Positions 86 to 56,578 of a DNA stretch of 64,000 bases are shown piece by piece. The position numbers and the translations under genes are program-made. Numbering within the stretch: the stretch's first letter is position 1; every line of letters starts with the position of its first letter. The stretch is taken from the IMG/VR virus record IMGVR_UViG_3300034061_002899; one strand, written 5' to 3'. Below the pieces are notes generated by a model. That model had not been told where the DNA came from. It did no database searches and saw only the letters and a program-made list of their open reading frames with translations. The DNA is from a virus.

Positions 86-3000
86 GTCATCGGTTACTCC
101 AGAGGTAAGAAGAACAGTTACGACAAGCCCTGTACTTACTACTACTGCATCTAGCCCAACACCCCCTATCGTACCGGGACCGGGAACAGGTACTAATCCT
201 CTTCCTCCAGGACCCGTATTCCCAGATCCTGCAAATCTTGTAGTTCCTAATGATGAAATTCCTGAACCAGTACCTCAAATTGAGTTCACTGTACCTACCC
301 CAGCTAATACAGTGGTTGGTCCTGATGGATTCTTAAATACATTAGTAACAAATGAAGCACTTCCGGTTGATGAAGGTAACATTATTAACGTTACCAATGT
401 TTACAATACATTCCTATCTAACGTTGGAATATATGATGGAAATAATTTAATATCTAATGCTGTACAACAACTAATATTTACTGGTGATGGAGTTACAGTC
501 ACTGGTAGTAACACTGCCTATATTAATATTCCCGGCGGTAACAGTAGTGGTAATGGCGTACCGGGTGGTAGTAACACTCAAATTCAATACAACAATAGTG
601 GTAATTTTGGAGGAAACAGTGGTTTTACATTTGATTCAACAATTGGTGAATTAAGTGTGCCGGGTAATATTGTAGTTGGTAATGCTATAGGCGGCAATTT
701 AACAGGTGCTAACGTTATATTCGCTAACTCATTTACTAGTAATGGTGGTGTTGTAGATTTTGCTACAAATAATCCAGATGTATTGTTGGGTAATGTAGGT
801 AATATAACTATAGGTGGCGGTACTGCTAATTATGTATTGACAACTGATGGTGCTGGTAACTTAAGTTGGGTAGCACGTGCTCGTGGTGTCACTGTACAAG
901 AAGAAGGTACTAATGTACTAGCAACAGCAAATACAATCAACTTTGTTGGTAATGGTGTTACTGCAAGCAACGTGGGTAACGTTGCTACTATTACAATTGC
1001 CGGTGGTATTGGTGGCATTGCGGTTCAAGAAGAAGGTACTAATGTACTAGCCACAGCAAATACAATCAACTTTGTCGGTTCAGGTGTTACAGCAAGTAAT
1101 GTAGGTAACGTTGCTACTATTACAATTACCGGTGGCGGTGCAGTTTCTGGCTCTAATACACAATTACAATTTAATGATGGTGGTAACTTTGGTGCAAGTT
1201 CTAACTTAACATTTGATAAAACAACTAGCAATTTAACTGTTGGTAGTAATGTTCTTGCTGTTAACTTTATTGGTTCAGGTTCAAACACACCAACAGTTAC
1301 CTCAGGCACTAATTTAGATTTGATAGCAACTGCAGGTGTTCGTGTTCCTTCTAACATTAGTTTATATGGTGGAAATGTATCATTGGGTGCCGTAGCTAAT
1401 CTACATATTACCGGTGGTACTGCTAATTATGTATTGACAACTGACGGGGCTGGTAACTTAAGTTGGAGTGCTGGTGGAGGTAGTGGTGCTAATGGTACTC
1501 CAGCCGGTTCTAATACACAAGTACAATATAACAATAATGGAAACTTTGGTGCAAGTTCAGGCTTTACATTTGATTCAACTACTGGTTGGTTAAGAGCTCC
1601 TGGTAATATTACTGCAAACTCAGAACTACATTTTGGATACGATCAAGGTTTTTCTAATGTGTCTGATGCTTGGGGTCGTTTACGAATGTTTCCAGGAAAT
1701 GTTCAAAATGCTAATATAAACACAGGTTATGGATTTACATATCAAAACACAGGATCTGGCCCGGCATATTTAGCGTTAACAAATGAAGAACGAAATTTCA
1801 ATCAAGCACTTATTATAGCAGATGGTTCAATAGGACCAGGCGCAGGTAATGTACCTGTAACCGCATTTGGTTTTAGTATAATTGACAGTATTGCAAATAC
1901 ATCACCTACTACAGGAAATGAAAACGGTTGGACTCCTTTATTAAACCTAGATTATAATGGTAATTTTACTTTACCTGGAATCCCCAGTTGGACAAGTAAC
2001 TCTGGTACAGCAAATGTCGGTAGTCTATTGGTCAGAGGCAGGTCTAATTTAAACAGTGTATCAAATATTACTATTACTGGTGGTACTATAGGTCAAGTGT
2101 TGACTACTAATGGTAATGGTAATTTAACTTGGAGTAATGCAGGAGCTGGACTTTCTGTGCGAGATGAAGGAGCCAATGTTTTAACATCAGCAAGTATAAT
2201 GAACTTTGTGGGTGCAGGCGTGGTTGCAAGTAACGTAGGTGGTGTTGCTACTATTACTATTCCAGGTGCAGGTGGAAACGGATCACCAGGTGGCGCAAAT
2301 GGTCAAGTACAATATAATGATAATGATATATTTGGTGGAAATCCAGGATTCACATTTGATGAATCTAATACTACAGTAACAGCTAACAATTTTGTTGCTA
2401 CAAGCACAGCTAACTTAGGTGATGTTGCTAATGTTACAATTCTAGGTGGCACAGCTAATTATGTATTGACAACTGACGGCACAGGTACATTAAGCTGGTC
2501 TAACTTATCTGCTACAAGTAACCTTGCTGCCGGCGGTGCAAACACACAAGTTCAATATAATGATGATGGCATATTAGGTGGAAATCCAGGATTTACATTT
2601 AATGAAGGATTATCATTAATTACTGCTAATAACTTAACTGTAAGTAGCAAATCTAATTTAAATTCAGTATCTAATGTAACTATCTTAGGTGGTACTAATG
2701 GTTACTATCTACAAACTGATGGTTCAGGTAACTTAACATGGGCTCCTGGAAGTAACAGCACAGGTAATGGTAGTGTTGCTGGTGCTAACACTCAAGTTCA
2801 ATTCAATGACGAAGGAAACTTTGGTGCAGTTGCTGGATTTACATTCAACAAAACATCTACTACATTAACAGCAAACAACATTGTTGCTTCAAGCACAGCT
2901 AACTTAGGTGATGTTGGTAATGTATATATTGGTGGTGGTACTGCTAACTATGTGTTGACAACTGACGGTACCGGCACACTAACTTGGTCTAATCTATCAG

Positions 3001-5954
3001 CAACCAGCAATATTGCAGCCGGTGGTGCAAATACACAAGTTCAATACAACGATGATGGTATACTAGGTGGTAACCCGGCGTTTACATTTGATGAAGGCAC
3101 TACTTTAATTACTGCTAATAACCTAACAGTAAGTTCTATTACTCGTTTAGGTAACGTTGGCAATGTTCACATTGACGGTGGCACAGCTAATTTTGTATTG
3201 ACAACTGACGGTACAGGCAACTTAAGTTGGACTAGTGGTAATAGTATTGCCAATGTAGCCGCAGGTGGCGCAAATACTCAAGTTCAATATAATGATGATG
3301 GCATATTAGGTGGTAACCCAGCATTTACATTTGATGAGGGATTATCATTAATTACTGCTAATAACTTAACAGTAAGCTCTATTACTCGTTTAGGTAACGT
3401 TGGCAATGTTCATATCGATGGTGGTATTAACGGATACTTCTTACAGACAGACGGAACAGGTAACTTAGTATGGGGTGTTCCAATTGGCTTACCGGGTAAC
3501 GGACAAGTTGCAGGTGCCAACACTCAAATTCAATTTAATGACGCAGGTAACTTTGGTGCTGTTGCTGGTTTTACATTCGACAAAACAACTACTACGTTTA
3601 CAGCAAATAATATTATTGGTAATAGTACTGTTAATTTTACAACAGCATCAAATGTTAGTTTAGGTAATGTTGGTAATGTACATATCGCAGGTGGTAACGC
3701 TAATTTCATATTGACTACTGATGGTACAGGTAACTTATCCTGGGCTAACTTAGCCGGCGGCGGTGCTGGTAATATTGCGGCAGGTGGTGCAAATACACAA
3801 GTTCAATATAATGATGATGGCATATTAGGTGGTAACCCAGCATTTACATTTGATGAGGGATTATCATTAATTACTGCTAATAACTTTGTAGCAACTAGCA
3901 CAGCTAACTTGGGTGCAGTTAGTAATGTTACAATTACCGGTGGTACTAATGGTTATGTTCTACAAACTGACGGAGCAGGTAATTTAACTTGGACAGCACA
4001 AACAGGCGGAAATGCAGGTAATGGAATACCAGCTGGAGCAAATACACAAGTTCAATTCAATGATGCAGGTAATTTTGGTGCAAGTGCTGGATTTACTTTT
4101 AATAGTTCAAATACTTTACTCACAACCAATAATCTAGCTGTTACGACTACTGCTAACTTTATATCAGCATCAAACGTTAGTTTAGGTAATGTTGGTAATA
4201 TTCACATTTCAGGTGGCGGTGCAAATTATGTATTAGTCACTGATGGATCTGGTGACCTAAGTTGGGCTAATTTATCAGCAACTACAATTGGCATTAAAGC
4301 AGGTGGTGCAAATACTCAAGTTCAATATAACGATGATGGCATAATAGGTGGTCACCCAGCATTTACATTTGATGAAGGATTACAACTAGTTACAGCAAAT
4401 AATTTTGCGGCAACAAGTACAGCTAACTTAGGTGATGTTGGTAATGTATATATTGGTGGTGGTAATGCTAATTATATATTAACTACCGATGGTACAGGCA
4501 CGCTAAGTTGGGCTAACTTAGCCGCAGGTGACGTTGGCAACATCAAGGCAGGTGGTGCTAATACTCAAATTCAGTATAACGATGACGGCGTATTAGGTGG
4601 TCACCCAGCATTGACATTTGACGAGGGATTAACATTAGTTACAGCAAATAACTTAACAGTAACTTCTATTACTGAGTTAGGTGACTTAGGTAACGTATAT
4701 ATTACCGGTGGTAATCCGTTTGATGTTATTGCTACGATTGACGGAGCAGGTAATTTAGGTTGGGCAACAATTACATTTGAAGCCGGCGGTACAAATACAC
4801 AAGTTCAATACAATGATGATGGTTCATTTGGTGGTGATGCGACATTCACATTTGATGAGACATTAACATTATTAACTGTTAATAATTTTGTAGTTACAAG
4901 TACAGCTAACTTGGGTTCAAATGCTAATGTTACTATTACAGGTGGTGGACCTGGACAAGTATTGACTACGGACGGTACTGGTAATTTAAGTTGGAGTGAC
5001 GGGACAGCTAATACTCCAGGAGGTTATTATCTACATACACAATCAGTTGCAAGTAATGTTTGGACAGTAACTCACAATCTTAATAGAACATATGTTGTAG
5101 TAGAACCAGTTGATGCTAATAATAATTCTTATAATGGAAGATATGATTTCCCAACAATTAATTTTGTAAATGCTAACACATTGACAATGACATGGACTAC
5201 CGCAGTAGATGGATATGCAGCCGTAGTAGGTGGAGGTATAAGTTATTACAATGAAATTACTGGTATTACTGTACAAGACGAAGGTTCTAACGTATTAGCT
5301 AATGCTACTACACTGAACTTTGTTGGCCCTAGTGTTACAGCAAGTGATGTAGGTGGTGTTGCTACAATTAATATTGCAGGTATACCCGGAGTTATTATAC
5401 AAGATGAAGGTAACGTTGTAGTTGGTTCAACTAATACGTTTAATTTTGTAGGTGCAGGTGTTGAAGCAAGTAATGTAGGTGGTGTTGCAACAATCACAAT
5501 AAATGGTGGTATTACTGTATATGACGAGGGTGTTCCTTTTGTTAGTTCAATTGGTGCTCTTAACTTTGTTGGTCTAGGTGTTACGGCTACAGTAGCGCCG
5601 GGATCAGGTATAGCTACTGTTACTATTCCAGGCTCTAGTGCAGGTGATACTATTTACGACTTGGGTAATGTTTCAGGCACTACTACAATTAATATTAACA
5701 ACGGTACTATTCAAACATGTACAATGACAGCTAATACATTCTTTAACATATCATCAGTTGCATCAGGACAGAGTATTACATTGATAATAACACAGGGTGT
5801 AGGAGCCCCGTATCTTGCTACTTATGGTAGTACTGTTCTTTGGGCTTCTGGTTATAAAGCTCTAAGTACAACAGCTGGCGCTGTAGACATGGTTAACATG
5901 GTCAATATTGGCGGCACATATTATGCTACATTAACAACAGGATATGCGGCATGA
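3..5954 (+). CDS. Giant Gly/Asn/Thr-rich repeat protein, probable tail fibre/whisker (5'-truncated)
   Basis: The frame is open from base 3 (IQTNSTSS..., Pro/Thr-rich), so the true start is upstream of the window and not GTG312. It has about 14 copies of a GGANTQVQYND-G...LTTDG-GNL-W repeat and about 6 copies of a VQ(E/D)EG-NV...NFVG-GV-ASNVG-VATITI repeat. Confidence 0.75.
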   Translation: MQTNSTSSVTSAVASIRPSVNQIQTNSTSSVTPEVRRTVTTSPVLTTTASSPTPPIVPGPGTGTNPLPPGPVFPDPANLVVPNDEIPEPVPQIEFTVPTPANTVVGPDGFLNTLVTNEALPVDEGNIINVTNVYNTFLSNVGIYDGNNLISNAVQQLIFTGDGVTVTGSNTAYINIPGGNSSGNGVPGGSNTQIQYNNSGNFGGNSGFTFDSTIGELSVPGNIVVGNAIGGNLTGANVIFANSFTSNGGVVDFATNNPDVLLGNVGNITIGGGTANYVLTTDGAGNLSWVARARGVTVQEEGTNVLATANTINFVGNGVTASNVGNVATITIAGGIGGIAVQEEGTNVLATANTINFVGSGVTASNVGNVATITITGGGAVSGSNTQLQFNDGGNFGASSNLTFDKTTSNLTVGSNVLAVNFIGSGSNTPTVTSGTNLDLIATAGVRVPSNISLYGGNVSLGAVANLHITGGTANYVLTTDGAGNLSWSAGGGSGANGTPAGSNTQVQYNNNGNFGASSGFTFDSTTGWLRAPGNITANSELHFGYDQGFSNVSDAWGRLRMFPGNVQNANINTGYGFTYQNTGSGPAYLALTNEERNFNQALIIADGSIGPGAGNVPVTAFGFSIIDSIANTSPTTGNENGWTPLLNLDYNGNFTLPGIPSWTSNSGTANVGSLLVRGRSNLNSVSNITITGGTIGQVLTTNGNGNLTWSNAGAGLSVRDEGANVLTSASIMNFVGAGVVASNVGGVATITIPGAGGNGSPGGANGQVQYNDNDIFGGNPGFTFDESNTTVTANNFVATSTANLGDVANVTILGGTANYVLTTDGTGTLSWSNLSATSNLAAGGANTQVQYNDDGILGGNPGFTFNEGLSLITANNLTVSSKSNLNSVSNVTILGGTNGYYLQTDGSGNLTWAPGSNSTGNGSVAGANTQVQFNDEGNFGAVAGFTFNKTSTTLTANNIVASSTANLGDVGNVYIGGGTANYVLTTDGTGTLTWSNLSATSNIAAGGANTQVQYNDDGILGGNPAFTFDEGTTLITANNLTVSSITRLGNVGNVHIDGGTANFVLTTDGTGNLSWTSGNSIANVAAGGANTQVQYNDDGILGGNPAFTFDEGLSLITANNLTVSSITRLGNVGNVHIDGGINGYFLQTDGTGNLVWGVPIGLPGNGQVAGANTQIQFNDAGNFGAVAGFTFDKTTTTFTANNIIGNSTVNFTTASNVSLGNVGNVHIAGGNANFILTTDGTGNLSWANLAGGGAGNIAAGGANTQVQYNDDGILGGNPAFTFDEGLSLITANNFVATSTANLGAVSNVTITGGTNGYVLQTDGAGNLTWTAQTGGNAGNGIPAGANTQVQFNDAGNFGASAGFTFNSSNTLLTTNNLAVTTTANFISASNVSLGNVGNIHISGGGANYVLVTDGSGDLSWANLSATTIGIKAGGANTQVQYNDDGIIGGHPAFTFDEGLQLVTANNFAATSTANLGDVGNVYIGGGNANYILTTDGTGTLSWANLAAGDVGNIKAGGANTQIQYNDDGVLGGHPALTFDEGLTLVTANNLTVTSITELGDLGNVYITGGNPFDVIATIDGAGNLGWATITFEAGGTNTQVQYNDDGSFGGDATFTFDETLTLLTVNNFVVTSTANLGSNANVTITGGGPGQVLTTDGTGNLSWSDGTANTPGGYYLHTQSVASNVWTVTHNLNRTYVVVEPVDANNNSYNGRYDFPTINFVNANTLTMTWTTAVDGYAAVVGGGISYYNEITGITVQDEGSNVLANATTLNFVGPSVTASDVGGVATINIAGIPGVIIQDEGNVVVGSTNTFNFVGAGVEASNVGGVATITINGGITVYDEGVPFVSSIGALNFVGLGVTATVAPGSGIATVTIPGSSAGDTIYDLGNVSGTTTININNGTIQTCTMTANTFFNISSVASGQSITLIITQGVGAPYLATYGSTVLWASGYKALSTTAGAVDMVNMVNIGGTYYATLTTGYAA

Positions 5955-23442: not shown

Positions 23443-23895
23443 ATGGAACAAAATATTCAAGCACAAACAGAAAAACGTATACGCATTAAGCAACATGCCA
23501 AGCGTATGATTTTCGTAACATTTCAAAAAGAGGGTATTCACAAATACCCGGCAGCGGCAACAGATCCATTACTCGCAACGGGTGATGAATATGATGTTAG
23601 CTTTTTAGGAACTCCACATCGTCACATCTTTCACTTTAACGTGGCGATTGAAGTATTTCACAATGACAGGGATATTGAATTCATTCAATTTAAACGCTGG
23701 TTAGAGAATCTCTATAAAGGCGGAACACTTGAATTGAATTACAAAAGTTGTGAAATGATTAGTGATGACCTCTATGAAGTTATTGCTACTCGCTATCCCG
23801 ATCGTAACATTGAGATTACTGTCTCGGAAGACGGTGAGAACGGTGCAACGATTTATTACAACACAACACAACCTTATCAACAATTAGCTATTTAA
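23443..23895 (+). CDS. QueD-like T-fold protein, DpdL-type (putative CDG decarboxylase)
   Basis: H...LGTPHRHIF (LxxxHRHxF) in place of the QueD CxxxHGH motif; also DIEF, SCE and VSEDGENGA. Confidence 0.7.
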   Translation: MEQNIQAQTEKRIRIKQHAKRMIFVTFQKEGIHKYPAAATDPLLATGDEYDVSFLGTPHRHIFHFNVAIEVFHNDRDIEFIQFKRWLENLYKGGTLELNYKSCEMISDDLYEVIATRYPDRNIEITVSEDGENGATIYYNTTQPYQQLAI

Positions 23896-28861: not shown

Positions 28862-29542
28862 ATGAGTTATAATAAGACAAAAACAGATCCAGAATTGGGT
28901 CAAAAAGTACATCAGCATTTACTTAAGTGTGGTGTAGAAACTCCTACAGTCAATAACAGTATTGATCGTAAAGCTAAAATCGAAATCATCGAAAATGCTT
29001 TCACAAACATTATGCTTACATTGGGTCTAGACCTGTCAGACGATAGTTTGATTGAAACACCAAAGCGTGTTGCTAAGATGTATGTAAATGAAATCTTTTG
29101 GGGACTAGACTATGAAGCATTCCCTAAATGCACAACAGTTGACAACAAGATGCAATACAACGAAATGGTTGTAGAGCGTAATGTTAATGTTCAATCTAAC
29201 TGCGAACATCATTTTGTCATCATTGACGGATTGGCTACTGTAGCTTATGTCCCTAAACAACGAGTGTTAGGGCTTAGTAAGATAAACCGTATTGTAGAAT
29301 ATTTTAGCAAAAGGCCTCAAATCCAAGAGAGGTTAACAGAGCAAATTTTCCACACCTTACAGTTCATCCTTGAAACAGAAGATGTTGCAGTTATGATTGA
29401 TGCACAACACTATTGTGTAAAATCACGTGGTGTAGAAGATACAGGTAGTAGTACTGTTACTTGTCGTTTAGGTGGTGGTTTCAAAACTGATCCAGCGGCA
29501 AGACAAGAGTTCTTACAGATTGCTAACAAAGGTTGCAAATGA
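28862..29542 (+). CDS. folE: GTP cyclohydrolase I
   Basis: ETPKRVAK, CEHH, GLSK..R, RPQIQERLT and H.C...RG motifs. Confidence 0.97.
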   Translation: MSYNKTKTDPELGQKVHQHLLKCGVETPTVNNSIDRKAKIEIIENAFTNIMLTLGLDLSDDSLIETPKRVAKMYVNEIFWGLDYEAFPKCTTVDNKMQYNEMVVERNVNVQSNCEHHFVIIDGLATVAYVPKQRVLGLSKINRIVEYFSKRPQIQERLTEQIFHTLQFILETEDVAVMIDAQHYCVKSRGVEDTGSSTVTCRLGGGFKTDPAARQEFLQIANKGCK

Positions 29543-31772: not shown

Positions 31773-32474
31773 ATGAACGGTAACCGAACTTGTATTATTT
31801 GCTTACCACGCACGGGTAGTCAATTATGTGAACAATTAGCTAATGAGGTAAACTCAGGGATTCAATTGGGTGAATATTTCGAAAATTGGAATCGTAGTGA
31901 ATACATCACTGATGTGGACAATAATATATTATTAAAGAATTTTGCTAGCATTCCTACAGACTTTAAACTATTTGAAGGATTTAAAGAACGACTTGATTTA
32001 TTGAAAAATACAAATATAAATCAGCCACTAACACTAAGAATATTTTTGATGGATCAACATGATAAAGATATACTATCTAATATAATAATGGAATTAAAAA
32101 ATATAGGTTTTGAATTTATCACATTGAAAAGGGATATAAAAGAACAACTATTAAGTTACATGATTGCCCGCTCTTATGTAAAAAATGTATTTAGAATTAA
32201 TAGTGAAATAAATCAACCGGTATACATTGATCTTAGAAAATTAAATAAAGCACTAACTCACATCTATGATAGTCATCTATTATGGGAAAAGAACTTATCT
32301 GTGGTATTACACAATATTGAATATCAAACAGTAAATTATGAATCTATACATTCAGATATGGAAAACATCTACAACACAAAATTTAAATATCAAAGTGAAA
32401 AGTCAATTAAAGGTGACCCATTTGATTTAATTATAAATAAACAAGAGGTTATGGATTTTTTAACAAATCTTTGA
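31773..32474 (+). CDS. Sulfotransferase-like (Stf0-type) protein
   Basis: PRTGS.L, GEYF, I.L.R....Q..SY..A and YE motifs. Confidence 0.65.
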   Translation: MNGNRTCIICLPRTGSQLCEQLANEVNSGIQLGEYFENWNRSEYITDVDNNILLKNFASIPTDFKLFEGFKERLDLLKNTNINQPLTLRIFLMDQHDKDILSNIIMELKNIGFEFITLKRDIKEQLLSYMIARSYVKNVFRINSEINQPVYIDLRKLNKALTHIYDSHLLWEKNLSVVLHNIEYQTVNYESIHSDMENIYNTKFKYQSEKSIKGDPFDLIINKQEVMDFLTNL

Positions 32475-32482
32475 CTTTACCA

Positions 32483-32550
32483 ATACCGGTCTCTTTGGGC
32501 TCATCCCGGTATACAAATTCTGCGTCCTATGCTATAATCTAACATAGGAG
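32483..32550 (+). promoter_or_regulatory. Candidate cis-regulatory RNA upstream of queD (pseudoknot plus RBS-sequestering hairpin)
   Basis: ATACCGG/CCGGTAT stem; loop GGGC pairs with GTCC; TCCTATG/CATAGGA stem covers the AGGAG RBS. Confidence 0.5.
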
Positions 32551-32556
32551 AACACA

Positions 32557-33039
32557 ATGGCAAACAAAAAATTCTTTTCAACAAAGACATACCGACAAAT
32601 AGGTCCTGTTGCATATCGTCAATGGCGTGCAGACAGTCATTGTAATTTAATTCATGGCTATGCTATGAGTTTTCACTTTGAGTTTGAAGCTGATACACTT
32701 GATGCCCGTAACTGGGTAACAGACTTCGGTGGATTACGACCACTCAAAGATAAACTAGAAGAATGGTTCGATCATACATTACTAGTTGCACAAGATGACC
32801 CAATGCGTGAACATTTATTAGAACTAGGTCGTTTGAAATTAGCAAAGATTACAGAAGTAGAACGTACTGGTTGTGAAGGTATTGCTGACTTCTTGTATGA
32901 ATATATTAACACAATCTTTTTACCTAACTGCGGTAGTGAAGAAGCAAAACGTGTCTGGTGCTGTAGAGTAGAGGTTCGTGAGACTGATAGTAACATGGCA
33001 GGACGTGGTGGTCACAGGGAAGACAATGAATTCGCTTGA
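32557..33039 (+). CDS. queD: 6-carboxy-5,6,7,8-tetrahydropterin synthase
   Basis: HCNLIHGY, DFGGL, FDH, GCE and V.VRET motifs. Confidence 0.9.
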   Translation: MANKKFFSTKTYRQIGPVAYRQWRADSHCNLIHGYAMSFHFEFEADTLDARNWVTDFGGLRPLKDKLEEWFDHTLLVAQDDPMREHLLELGRLKLAKITEVERTGCEGIADFLYEYINTIFLPNCGSEEAKRVWCCRVEVRETDSNMAGRGGHREDNEFA

Positions 33040-33220: not shown

Positions 33221-33412
33221 ATGAATAAAAAAATTAAAGAACTATGGGAAGAAGCCGCTCAACGAGATGATATAATGGATGAAAAACGTTATGAACATTT
33301 TGCTGAGTTAGTAATTAGAGACTGTGCTAAACAAGTTAACCATCTTTATAAACAAGGTGGCGGCACTTGGGGTGAAGTTATTCTTAAACATTTTAATATA
33401 AAAATCAAATGA
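33221..33412 (+). CDS. Small protein of the FAELIVREC...HF family
   Basis: EHFAELVIRDC...ILKHF. Confidence 0.65.
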   Translation: MNKKIKELWEEAAQRDDIMDEKRYEHFAELVIRDCAKQVNHLYKQGGGTWGEVILKHFNIKIK

Positions 33413-34257
33413 GTCATTTAAAAGTATCAGAGTTATTTTATAGTATTCAAGGTGAGGGTAGATTCATGGGAGTTCCCTCCGTGTTCTTACGAACATATGG
33501 ATGCAATTTTACATGCGGTGGATTCGGCATGCCTAAAGGGGAATTGAGTAGTGAGAGAGATGTTATTGCGATTAAAGCAGAAGATTATACAGACTATAAA
33601 TCCTTACCGCTTGTCAGTACAGGATGTGATAGTTACGCAAGTTGGGACCCTCGTTTTAAACATCTTAGTCCTGTCATCGCTACCGATAGTATTGTTGACA
33701 GCATTTGTGATATACTTCCTCATGGTCGTTGGATGGATGAACATCTTGTTATTACAGGTGGTGAACCTCTTCTTGGCTGGCAAAGAGCGTATCCTGACTT
33801 ACTGTCACATGAGAAAATGAGAGCATTGAAAGAGATTACATTTGAAACTAATGGCACACAAGAACTAAATCAAGACTTTAAAATATATCTACAGAAATGG
33901 AAGATTAACAGAGAAAAGAATGCACTTACATTTAGTGTGAGTCCTAAACTAAGTATCAGCGGTGAGAAGTGGAGTGAAGCAATTTGTCCCGAAATTATTC
34001 ATCAATATGAAAGCATAGGATTTGTATATCTTAAGTTTGTCATTGCCACAAAAGAAGATGCAATTGAAGCTGATGAAGCAGTAAAAGAGTTTCGTGGTAG
34101 AGGTTTTAGAGGTCCAGTATACTTCATGCCATGCGGTGGTGTAGAATCATTGTATAACTTAAATGCAAAGAATGTTGCTATTGAAGCAATGAATCGTGGT
34201 TATCGTTATAGCGACAGACTACAAGTACCACTCTTTAAAAATGAGTGGGGAACTTAA
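33409..34257 (+). CDS. queE: 7-carboxy-7-deazaguanine synthase (radical SAM)
   Basis: E.FYSIQGEG...G.PSVFLR..GCNFTC...(insert)...CDS, ITGGEP, ETNGT, SPK and R.Q motifs. Confidence 0.92.
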   Translation: MSHLKVSELFYSIQGEGRFMGVPSVFLRTYGCNFTCGGFGMPKGELSSERDVIAIKAEDYTDYKSLPLVSTGCDSYASWDPRFKHLSPVIATDSIVDSICDILPHGRWMDEHLVITGGEPLLGWQRAYPDLLSHEKMRALKEITFETNGTQELNQDFKIYLQKWKINREKNALTFSVSPKLSISGEKWSEAICPEIIHQYESIGFVYLKFVIATKEDAIEADEAVKEFRGRGFRGPVYFMPCGGVESLYNLNAKNVAIEAMNRGYRYSDRLQVPLFKNEWGT

Positions 34258-44467: not shown

Positions 44468-44540
44468 TGTTGTAAAAATACAACAATCCAAAATTTGACA
44501 ATAAATCCAATTGGCTATATAATAGAATCTTAGACAGTTA
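44468..44540 (+). promoter_or_regulatory. TGTTGTA-N4-TACAACA inverted repeat plus repeated early promoter TTGACAATAAAT..TATAATAGAATCTTAGACAGTTA
   Basis: -35 at 44495-44500 and -10 at 44518-44523; same element as the 55.2-56.6 kb copies. Confidence 0.8.
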
Positions 44541-44662
44541 GATAACGGTCTAAAAAGAGAAAAAAATTCGGGAAACTGAATACTGTACAATAATTCAATC
44601 ATGTGTTATAGTACATACATCTACTGAGATGAGGACAACTAAGTTGAATTCTACTCAGGGAT

Positions 44663-55265: not shown

Positions 55266-55490
55266 ATGAAATCAAAAATCTTCATTATTCAGCGTGACAA
55301 CGACAATTATTTCAAGCAAAAGTTGCCTACATGGCGCAACGGTTTTTGTGAAATTACTCGCAATGTCATAATTGAACCAGACCCGCACGGTATCTATTTG
55401 GATGGTGAGTGGGGTTATATCACAGTCTATGGTAAAAAGATTTATGTCACTAGGGCCGGCACTGAATTTGCATTTGAAATTCGTGGCTAA
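55266..55490 (+). CDS. Early hypothetical protein, copy 1
   Basis: 65/74 aa identical to 56287-56511. Confidence 0.8.
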   Translation: MKSKIFIIQRDNDNYFKQKLPTWRNGFCEITRNVIIEPDPHGIYLDGEWGYITVYGKKIYVTRAGTEFAFEIRG

Positions 55491-55556
55491 AAATTTGACA
55501 ATAAATGGATTTGGGTATATAATAGAATCTTAGACAGTTAAATAAAGGACTACAAA

Positions 55557-55823
55557 ATGGCAAAGAAAATCTCTATCAAAGTTTTTGGTGACCCCGGACA
55601 CGCTTGGGCACGTTTCCCCAAAGCTAAATTGGTTAGTCTTGGTATTGCTGATAAGATCACCCCTTACAGTTATCAAAATGGTACTAATGCTTTCCTTGAG
55701 GAAGACTGTGACCTGTCAACACTAATGGCGGCTCTTAAAGCCAAGGGCTATGAAGTCAAATTTAATGAAAGTTTTACCAACAGGCAAAGCAAAATCCGTG
55801 GTTATTGCTCATACAGAATTTGA
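55557..55823 (+). CDS. Early hypothetical protein (DPGHAW...YSY...LEEDCD)
   Basis: Own promoter and AAGGA RBS. Confidence 0.75.
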   Translation: MAKKISIKVFGDPGHAWARFPKAKLVSLGIADKITPYSYQNGTNAFLEEDCDLSTLMAALKAKGYEVKFNESFTNRQSKIRGYCSYRI

Positions 55824-55881
55824 CAATAAATGGGCTTTGTGCTATAATAGAATCTTAAACAATTAACAAACAGGAGTTATT

Positions 55882-56286: not shown

Positions 56287-56511
56287 ATGAAATCAAAAAT
56301 CTTTATTGTTCAACGTGACAACGACAAGTATTTCAAGCAGAAATTGCCTACATGGCGCAATGGTTTCTGTGAAATAGTACGTAATGTCACTATTGAAAAG
56401 GATCCGCACGACATTTACCAAGACGGTGAATGGGGTTACATTACGGTCTATGGCCGTAAGATTTATGTCACTAGATCCGGCACTGAATTTGCGTTTGAAA
56501 TTCGTGGCTAA
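56287..56511 (+). CDS. Early hypothetical protein, copy 2
   Basis: Paralog of 55266-55490; ATG 6 nt after the -10 box. Confidence 0.8.
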   Translation: MKSKIFIVQRDNDKYFKQKLPTWRNGFCEIVRNVTIEKDPHDIYQDGEWGYITVYGRKIYVTRSGTEFAFEIRG

Positions 56512-56578
56512 AAGGTTGACAATAAATGGATTTGGGTATATAATAGAGTCTTAGTCAGTTAAACAACAGGAGTTAAAA

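Follow-up and report, generated by a model that had tools for sequence, protein, structure and literature searches.

The window, a 64,000-nt stretch of DNA, comes from a 101-kb IMG/VR viral record with an estimated completeness of 29%, which implies a full phage genome of about 350 kb; the host of the element described here is an uncultured giant phage. Along with folE and queE, the window encodes a 160-aa, QueD-like T-fold protein of the PTPS family (Table 1). An 82-nt gap (32475-32556) separates the stop codon of the upstream ORF from the queD-like ATG, as a first-pass annotation of this DNA had noted, and all coordinates in that annotation were correct when re-checked against the letters. 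The inverted repeat of the leader has one exact copy in the window (0 expected). Folding of the leader as a single sequence gave a minimum free energy (MFE) of -15.6 kcal/mol, with z = -0.23 compared to shuffles. Since the lone sequence is no more stable than its shuffles, support for an RNA structure rests on comparison with relatives.

Table 1. Features of the queD-like locus and its leader (window coordinates).
Feature	Coordinates	Strand	Comment
folE	28862-29542		same window
TATAAATA, T4-type late-promoter consensus	32432-32439	+	45 nt upstream of conserved P1
Upstream ORF stop	32472-32474	+	ORF ends at 32474
P1 5' strand, ACCGG	32485-32489	+	pairs with 32506-32510
L1, N-C-U (here UCU) then variable spacer	32490-32496	+
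P2 5' strand, GGGC	32497-32500	+	pairs with 32524-32527
U of U·C mismatch (32501) and P2' 5' strand CA (32502-32503)	32501-32503	+
L2, N-C	32504-32505	+	C directly 5' of P1 3' strand
P1 3' strand, CCGGU	32506-32510	+	conservation and covariation
L3, A-rich linker AUACAAAUUC, 10 nt	32511-32520	+	conserved in relatives
P2' 3' strand UG (32521-32522) and C of U·C mismatch (32523)	32521-32523	+
P2 3' strand, GUCC	32524-32527	+	last bases common to the RBS-hiding hairpin
Sequestering hairpin, UCCUAUG/CAUAGGA	32525-32549	+	-7.3 kcal/mol; loop holds TGCTATAAT (32530-32538)
Shine-Dalgarno AGGAG (32546-32550) and queD-like start codon (32557-32559)	32546-32559	+
queD-like gene, PTPS-family T-fold protein, 160 aa	32557-33039	+	Pfam PTPS, 58 bits; PHROG 2389, QueD-like
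queE	33409-34257		same window

A protein-guided scan identified 323 viral contigs that encode close relatives of the QueD-like protein. Among these relatives the leader is kept from P1 onwards, even behind differing upstream genes. A degenerate pattern for the 3' half of the motif retrieved at least 120 further viral loci, and nearly all of the loci listed have a complementary P1 5' strand, although this was no part of the pattern. Two alignment sets were used for comparison, one based on the pattern and leader (129 unique aptamers) and one retrieved via the protein (51 unique leaders). Conservation and covariation in homologs, which the first-pass annotation had proposed as a check, were both seen, in the relatives from the 323 contigs and in the two alignments scored below.

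Strong covariation of both P1 and P2 is seen in a total of more than 150 unique uncultured-phage leaders. With pair counting under a pseudoknot mask, alignment A2 scored 0.282 compared to 0.094 for shuffles (0/500), and controls in which the pairing was slid scored no higher than 0.085. Alignment A4, from the protein-retrieved set, shows covariation at 11 of its 14 pairs (score 0.341 versus 0.092; 0/500). A4 is independent of the sequence pattern, having been retrieved with a protein profile and then scanned with a covariance model, and both P1 and P2' were absent from the model that aligned it. Furthermore, cognate loop/tail duplexes have a mean energy of -4.56 kcal/mol, compared to -3.34 kcal/mol (sd 0.12) for partner-shuffled duplexes (z = -9.9; 0/1000). 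The pairing of GGGC with GTCC across the loop and tail, proposed from the window's sequence by the first-pass annotation, is thus confirmed by covariation in relatives. On this comparative evidence, the queD leader holds a real RNA element, the conserved core of which is an H-type pseudoknot.

The individual parts of the aptamer, which is about 45 nt in size, differ in how tightly they are constrained. The 7-bp stem ATACCGG/CCGGTAT (32483-32489/32506-32512) with its 16-nt loop, reported earlier, is present in the window, but conservation is limited to its inner 5 bp; the two outermost pairs (5' bases 32483-32484) are lineage-specific and are paired in only 4 of the 129 unique leaders. The conserved P1 follows the pattern A-U, S-S, N-N, G-C, G-C, with 99.7% of cells paired. 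Among the 129 unique aptamers, pair 2 covaries between GC, CG and UA and pair 3 between CG, AU and UA. Among the relatives from the protein-guided scan, compensated changes in P1 give three sequence types (ACCGG/CCGGU, AGCGG/CCGCU and AGAGG/CCUCU). The C and U of L1 are invariant or nearly so, and the L1 spacer that follows varies from 0 to 6 nt. P2 ranges from 4 to 7 bp across relatives, with compensated variants that include GGCG/CGCC, GGCA/UGCC, GGUG/CACC, GAAC/GUUC and GACAA/UUGUC. Beyond a conserved U32501·C32523 mismatch we recognised a new 2-bp extension of P2, which we call P2' (32502-32503/32521-32522). Its C-G pair is invariant, and its A-U pair is replaced by G-C in 4/51 unique leaders and is unpaired in none; the two-pair extension is exposed by this variant class in the protein-retrieved set, where UCG replaces UCA and UCUGC becomes UCCGC. 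The C of L2 is present in 51/51 unique leaders retrieved via the protein, preceded by a variable base that is mostly U. In L3, which follows the pattern A.A.A..UC, A is invariant at positions 3, 5 and 7.

The element is highly specific to one gene. A covariance model gave a single match in the record from which the window derives and a single match in each of five complete genomes of 348-382 kb, and each match directly precedes the genome's only Pfam-detectable PTPS gene. No second copy was found in the window or in any of these genomes, by pattern or by covariance model. The genes downstream of the motif number 117, and 114 of them belong to one QueD/PTPS cluster; the remaining 3 are ORFs inserted between the leader and queD. 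At one such locus (L072:2577-3006, identical to L137 and L305; IMGVR_UViG_3300042455_002108), a foreign ORF of 113 aa lies between a complete leader, with aptamer and hairpin, and queD, such that the inserted gene has taken over the switch; similar insertions are found in L147 and L180.

Not all relatives carry the element. Among 80 loci retrieved by protein alone, 54 have the motif; it is missing from about 23 others for which the upstream sequence is long enough. The element is therefore dispensable, even where the protein is 90% identical. Upstream of position 1501 in L312 (IMGVR_UViG_3300009161_003962), for example, there is no aptamer before a QueD that is 90% identical; the leader is replaced by two TGTATAAT promoters and a plain Shine-Dalgarno sequence, which looks like a natural loss or replacement of the switch.

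Outside uncultured phages we detected almost nothing. The 3'-half pattern gave 74 matches in 185,579 prokaryote genomes, about the number expected by chance, of which 2 are true motifs. Both lie on short metagenome-assembled contigs, CAIJZG010000002.1 (L218; 5.5 kb) and JBDNIA010000411.1 (L253; 6.3 kb), binned as Bacteroidetes and Crocinitomicaceae (Bacteroidota), respectively. These contigs may be phage DNA, and their binning is a weak hint of the host phylum. A blastn search with two leader variants found no match in 50,697 cultured phage records. It should also be noted that six cultured phages with a related QueD (ACP17, X1, R26L, BUCT-ZZ01, Pan1 and Me-ZS1) gave no covariance-model hit above 7.3 bits, and that queD is packed against the upstream gene in all six. 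The element is restricted to phages, and it is a real, strongly covarying cis-regulatory RNA.

Its presence once per genome, almost only before one gene family, is typical of autoregulation, and T4-like phages are known for protein translational repressors. In the T4 gene 32 leader, a pseudoknot nucleates binding of the gene's own single-strand-binding protein, which represses translation. The queD leader could similarly be a translational operator in which a phage protein, either the QueD-like enzyme itself or a RegA-like protein, shifts the balance between the knot and the competing helix. The likeness to gene 32 lies in a pseudoknot that would govern downstream translation from the 5' leader of a T4-like phage; the differences are that the product here is a T-fold enzyme, that the conserved junction resembles a pocket and that the logic is, by our reasoning, activating. 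We know of no RNA binding by T-fold enzymes. The element persists while the protein diverges to less than 30% identity (alignment A3), and it is also found in front of inserted foreign ORFs. Furthermore, those unpaired bases that are conserved group together at the junction of P1 and P2, like those in the small-molecule pockets of preQ1-I riboswitches (PMC11625349). Regulation by a bound protein is therefore unlikely.

The first-pass annotation had cautioned that a TGnTATAAT sequence in the second loop could simply be a promoter, and the caution proved justified. The window has a -35-like TATACA (32510-32515), a 17-nt spacer and an extended -10 element, TGCTATAAT (32530-32538). The arrangement T(T/A)TACA, 17-18 nt, TGnTAnnnT occurs in 76-78 of the 79 leaders of the window's lineage (type A) and is absent from type B. 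In type A the -35-like hexamer consists of the last P1 base plus L3, and L3 position 4 is C in 75/79 type A leaders compared to 4/49 type B leaders. This conservation would be expected if the leader held only DNA-level signals, namely a terminator-like hairpin for the upstream gene, followed by a σ70 promoter for queD, with no functional RNA fold. However, the embedded promoter cannot explain the leader, since P2 covariation links the hairpin loop with the promoter spacer, and since type B and type C leaders keep the aptamer while having no embedded promoter. Intrinsic terminators have a GC-rich stem, a 3-8-nt loop and then a U tract. With a 13-19-nt loop, an A-rich tail and no U tract, the hairpin is not terminator-like, and a scan for intrinsic terminators did not list it. 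The promoter is thus a conserved feature of the lineage and fails as the sole explanation of the leader; we regard a purely DNA-level account as very improbable. Some lineages have an ORF that extends across the hairpin. We rejected a peptide-coding or readthrough interpretation on three grounds: the upstream genes are not the same, there are promoters in between, and the compensated changes alter the encoded amino acids.

Transcripts from the embedded σ70-like promoter would start near 32544-32546 and would contain neither the aptamer nor the anti-SD strand, and the promoter could possibly act as a bypass that escapes the switch. A long, aptamer-containing transcript in the window may start at TATAAATA, a candidate that shows no enrichment in the window (6 copies versus 10.3 expected). 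In 61/80 type A leaders TAAATA, the core of the T4-type late promoter, is found within 50 nt of P1, mostly 11-17 nt before it; the window does not have the P1-adjacent TAAATA of its relatives. Many type B leaders have a full TTGACA-17-TATAAT promoter that ends 7-9 nt before P1. Promoters or TAAATA just upstream of P1 suggest that the aptamer lies at the 5' end of the mRNA. In three RNA libraries, contigs span the upstream sequence, the aptamer and queD, with the limits that DNA carry-over is possible and that transcript starts are invisible in contigs. RNA libraries make up a small share of the sequencing runs with the element, counted from contigs only.

Elsewhere in the window, a 67-nt repeat occurs in four copies on the + strand (44490-44556, 55490-55556, 55815-55881 and 56511-56577). 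It carries a near-consensus TTGACA-17-TATAAT followed by a conserved leader, and the four copies are likely a family of strong early promoters.

The second stem described by the first-pass annotation, TCCTATG/CATAGGA (32525-32531/32543-32549), does bury the first bases of the AGGAG, and the knot and the hairpin compete through the TCC/CC that they have in common, since bases of the P2 3' strand (P2b) sit in both. Relatives extend this competition. Two unrelated expression platforms follow the aptamer, and both reuse the P2 3' strand to cover either the Shine-Dalgarno sequence or the AUG. In type A, the strand runs into CCUAUG, and pairing of this sequence with CAUAGG masks the Shine-Dalgarno sequence. 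In type B, it is the start codon that is masked, by pairing of the strand plus (A/G)UC with GAUGGCA; a third variant has the pairing ACUCC/GGAGU. The Shine-Dalgarno sequence follows about 20-45 nt downstream of P2b, and the nested MFE structure pairs the P2b zone with the region from Shine-Dalgarno to AUG in 121/128 unique leaders. The suggestion of a previously undescribed phage translational switch, in which an H-type pseudoknot opposes an anti-RBS hairpin, is thus supported both by covariation and by the analogous competitor helix in unrelated platforms. The leader combines the features by which riboswitches are generally recognised: a conserved, covarying aptamer and an alternative pairing that controls an expression signal.

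The direction of the switch was deduced by secondary-structure reasoning. The knot contains the conserved bases and is for that reason presumed to be the effector-bound form, and because the P2 3' strand also hides the Shine-Dalgarno sequence or AUG, knot formation should free the ribosome site. This would be ON logic, also in vivo. In the window the two alternatives are near in energy (-6.8 versus -7.3 kcal/mol), and the accessibility computed for the Shine-Dalgarno sequence plus AUG changed from 0.36 to 0.51 when the aptamer was blocked, a modest gain. Such a modest change, together with the dispensability of the element in some relatives and a position at or near the transcript 5' end in many lineages, where structures protect mRNA, is compatible with a fixed or kinetic device that has no specific effector, such as a translation tuner, a stabiliser of the mRNA 5' end, a thermometer or a co-transcriptional timer. 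However, mere stability needs neither invariant single-stranded bases nor a conserved U·C mismatch, and the fact that two platforms converge on the same mutually exclusive P2b pairing points to regulated switching. We consider a ligand-independent device distinctly unlikely.

Scans against all of Rfam, on 2 kb and on 111 nt, found no family at the element (E ≤10). Neither preQ1-II nor preQ1-III (RF01054, RF02680) gave a hit in these scans, and the element is half their size. SAM-II, SAM-V, SAM/SAH, guanidine-III and fluoride riboswitches are also small RNAs in which a ligand stabilises a pseudoknot sensing fold; they likewise have no Rfam match here, and their conserved nucleotides and genes are unrelated. 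The closest known system to the queD-leader motif is preQ1-I, the features of which were compared for types I-III (e.g., B. subtilis queC, T. tengcongensis and E. coli yhhQ; PMC11625349, PMC10622847). Like preQ1-I, the element is a small H-type pseudoknot with a 5-bp P1, a P2 formed between loop and 3' tail, an A-rich L3 and an invariant C, after a variable base that is mostly U, directly 5' of the P1 3' strand; it also lies in the leader of a 7-deazaguanine-pathway gene, with apparent translational control. In preQ1-I the cytosine at this position, in the context UC or AC, determines specificity (PMC11625349), and by analogy the L2 C may contribute to ligand binding.

These similarities, including the Y-C before the P1 3' strand and the que-pathway gene downstream, could mean that the element is a divergent but true preQ1-I member that binds preQ1 or preQ0 and represses translation. 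However, the first-pass annotation had judged the loop to be outside the preQ1-I consensus, and RF00522 indeed fails to match the element. When five genomes were searched directly with RF00522, there was no hit at the element (E ≤10) and only weak hits elsewhere; the element falls below the Rfam gathering threshold of the family (39 bits). Its L1 is N-C-U, its P2 is longer and has the U·C mismatch and CA/UG extension, and its L3, at 10 nt, is also longer. Unlike that of preQ1-I, its P2 does not include the Shine-Dalgarno sequence and competes with the helix hiding this sequence or the AUG, which would give ON rather than OFF logic; every described preQ1 riboswitch has the opposite logic (PMC11625349). 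Furthermore, the element is found in phage contigs only, and the phages that carry it do not have canonical QueC. We therefore do not file the element as a preQ1-I member, given the failed model, the P2 without a Shine-Dalgarno sequence, the reversed logic, the extended P2 and the restriction to phages, and we consider repression by preQ1 or preQ0 through a divergent preQ1-I RNA to be improbable. Our search of the literature found no description of the queD-leader motif; a 2024 review of preQ1 riboswitches mentions neither phages nor ON switches, and papers on 7-deazaguanine in phages do not mention riboswitches. Glutamine riboswitches (glnA RNA) are carried by marine myophages (PMC9004378). 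They resemble the element as riboswitch-type RNAs of uncultured or aquatic T4-like phages, but they are a borrowed bacterial class, while we detected no bacterial counterpart of the queD-leader motif.

The regulated protein is a divergent QueD, scoring 35.5 bits with TIGR03367 compared to a cut-off of 89.25, and a PDB sequence search with it returned no match. In alignment A3 it has invariant SHC..HGY and F/Y-R-Q motifs in place of the canonical C...HGH and A-H-R, so that two of the three usual zinc histidines are replaced. The same divergent type is common in cultured 7-deazaguanine phages. The first-pass annotation had seen neither QueC nor QueF; the absence of QueC held up, as neither QueC nor TGT has a Pfam match in the 101-kb record. 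The window encodes a second T-fold ORF of 150 aa (23443-23895, + strand) with the sequence LGTPHRHIF. LxxxHRHxF is the signature of DpdL, which is predicted to decarboxylate CDG in phages that have 2'-deoxy-7-deazaguanine and no QueC (PMC10516641). Homologues of DpdL occur in 5/5 complete and 16/20 fragmentary motif-bearing genomes (21/25 other records). For QueC, most motif-bearing genomes have no match and a few have short partial hits, none full-length. From this gene content, motif-bearing phages are predicted to use a QueC-less route of FolE, QueD, QueE and DpdL. Without canonical QueC, such phages would not be expected to produce preQ0 or preQ1 of their own, which makes guanine-faced compounds of the path from GTP through H2NTP, CPH4 and CDG to 7-deazaguanine, or guanine released by base exchange, plausible effectors. 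It is speculative, but a switch that activates would be easier to reconcile with a signal of precursor or demand than with an end product. In another part of the window (540-5700, + strand), many diverged units of about 243 nt and 129 nt, repeated in tandem (families D1-D6), make up a long coding region, probably for a fibre or surface protein with repeat domains.

The element is most likely a new class of riboswitch that controls a QueD-like enzyme with ON logic. In the translational ON riboswitch that we propose, to which we assign a probability of roughly 60%, the leader of the queD-like mRNA would fold into an H-type pseudoknot with a 5-bp P1, a 4-7-bp P2, a U·C mismatch and a 2-bp P2'. 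Alternatively, the P2 3' strand would pair with the ribosome-binding region, at the Shine-Dalgarno sequence in the window and at the start codon in other lineages. We infer that a ligand exists, most likely a small guanine-like or pterin-like metabolite of the route from GTP to 7-deazaguanine, and that it would stabilise the knot; the ribosome site would then be freed and the QueD-like protein translated. In the window's lineage, the embedded σ70-like promoter, if used, could add short transcripts that escape the switch. A more specific version of this proposal, for which we would give slightly less than even odds, is that the element represents the first virus-only riboswitch class: a preQ1-I-like sensor of a guanine-faced metabolite that turns ON the first committed enzyme of QueC-less, DpdL-type DNA hypermodification, with a promoter bypass. 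Candidate ligands would be guanine freed by DpdA base exchange, dihydroneopterin triphosphate, CDG and 7-deazaguanine.

To our knowledge, riboswitch classes are few, almost all have been found in bacteria, and those so far reported from phages have been borrowed from bacteria. A phage-confined class with activating logic would, if true, be new in two ways, and would mean that viruses evolve metabolite sensors of their own. As the aptamer is tiny, it is suited to structural work and tool building, and knowing its ligand would put the predicted QueC-less DpdL route to 7-deazaguanine DNA to the test as well. If the proposal is true, the element would provide a direct experimental handle on how giant phages time or meter the large flux that replaces guanine in their DNA.
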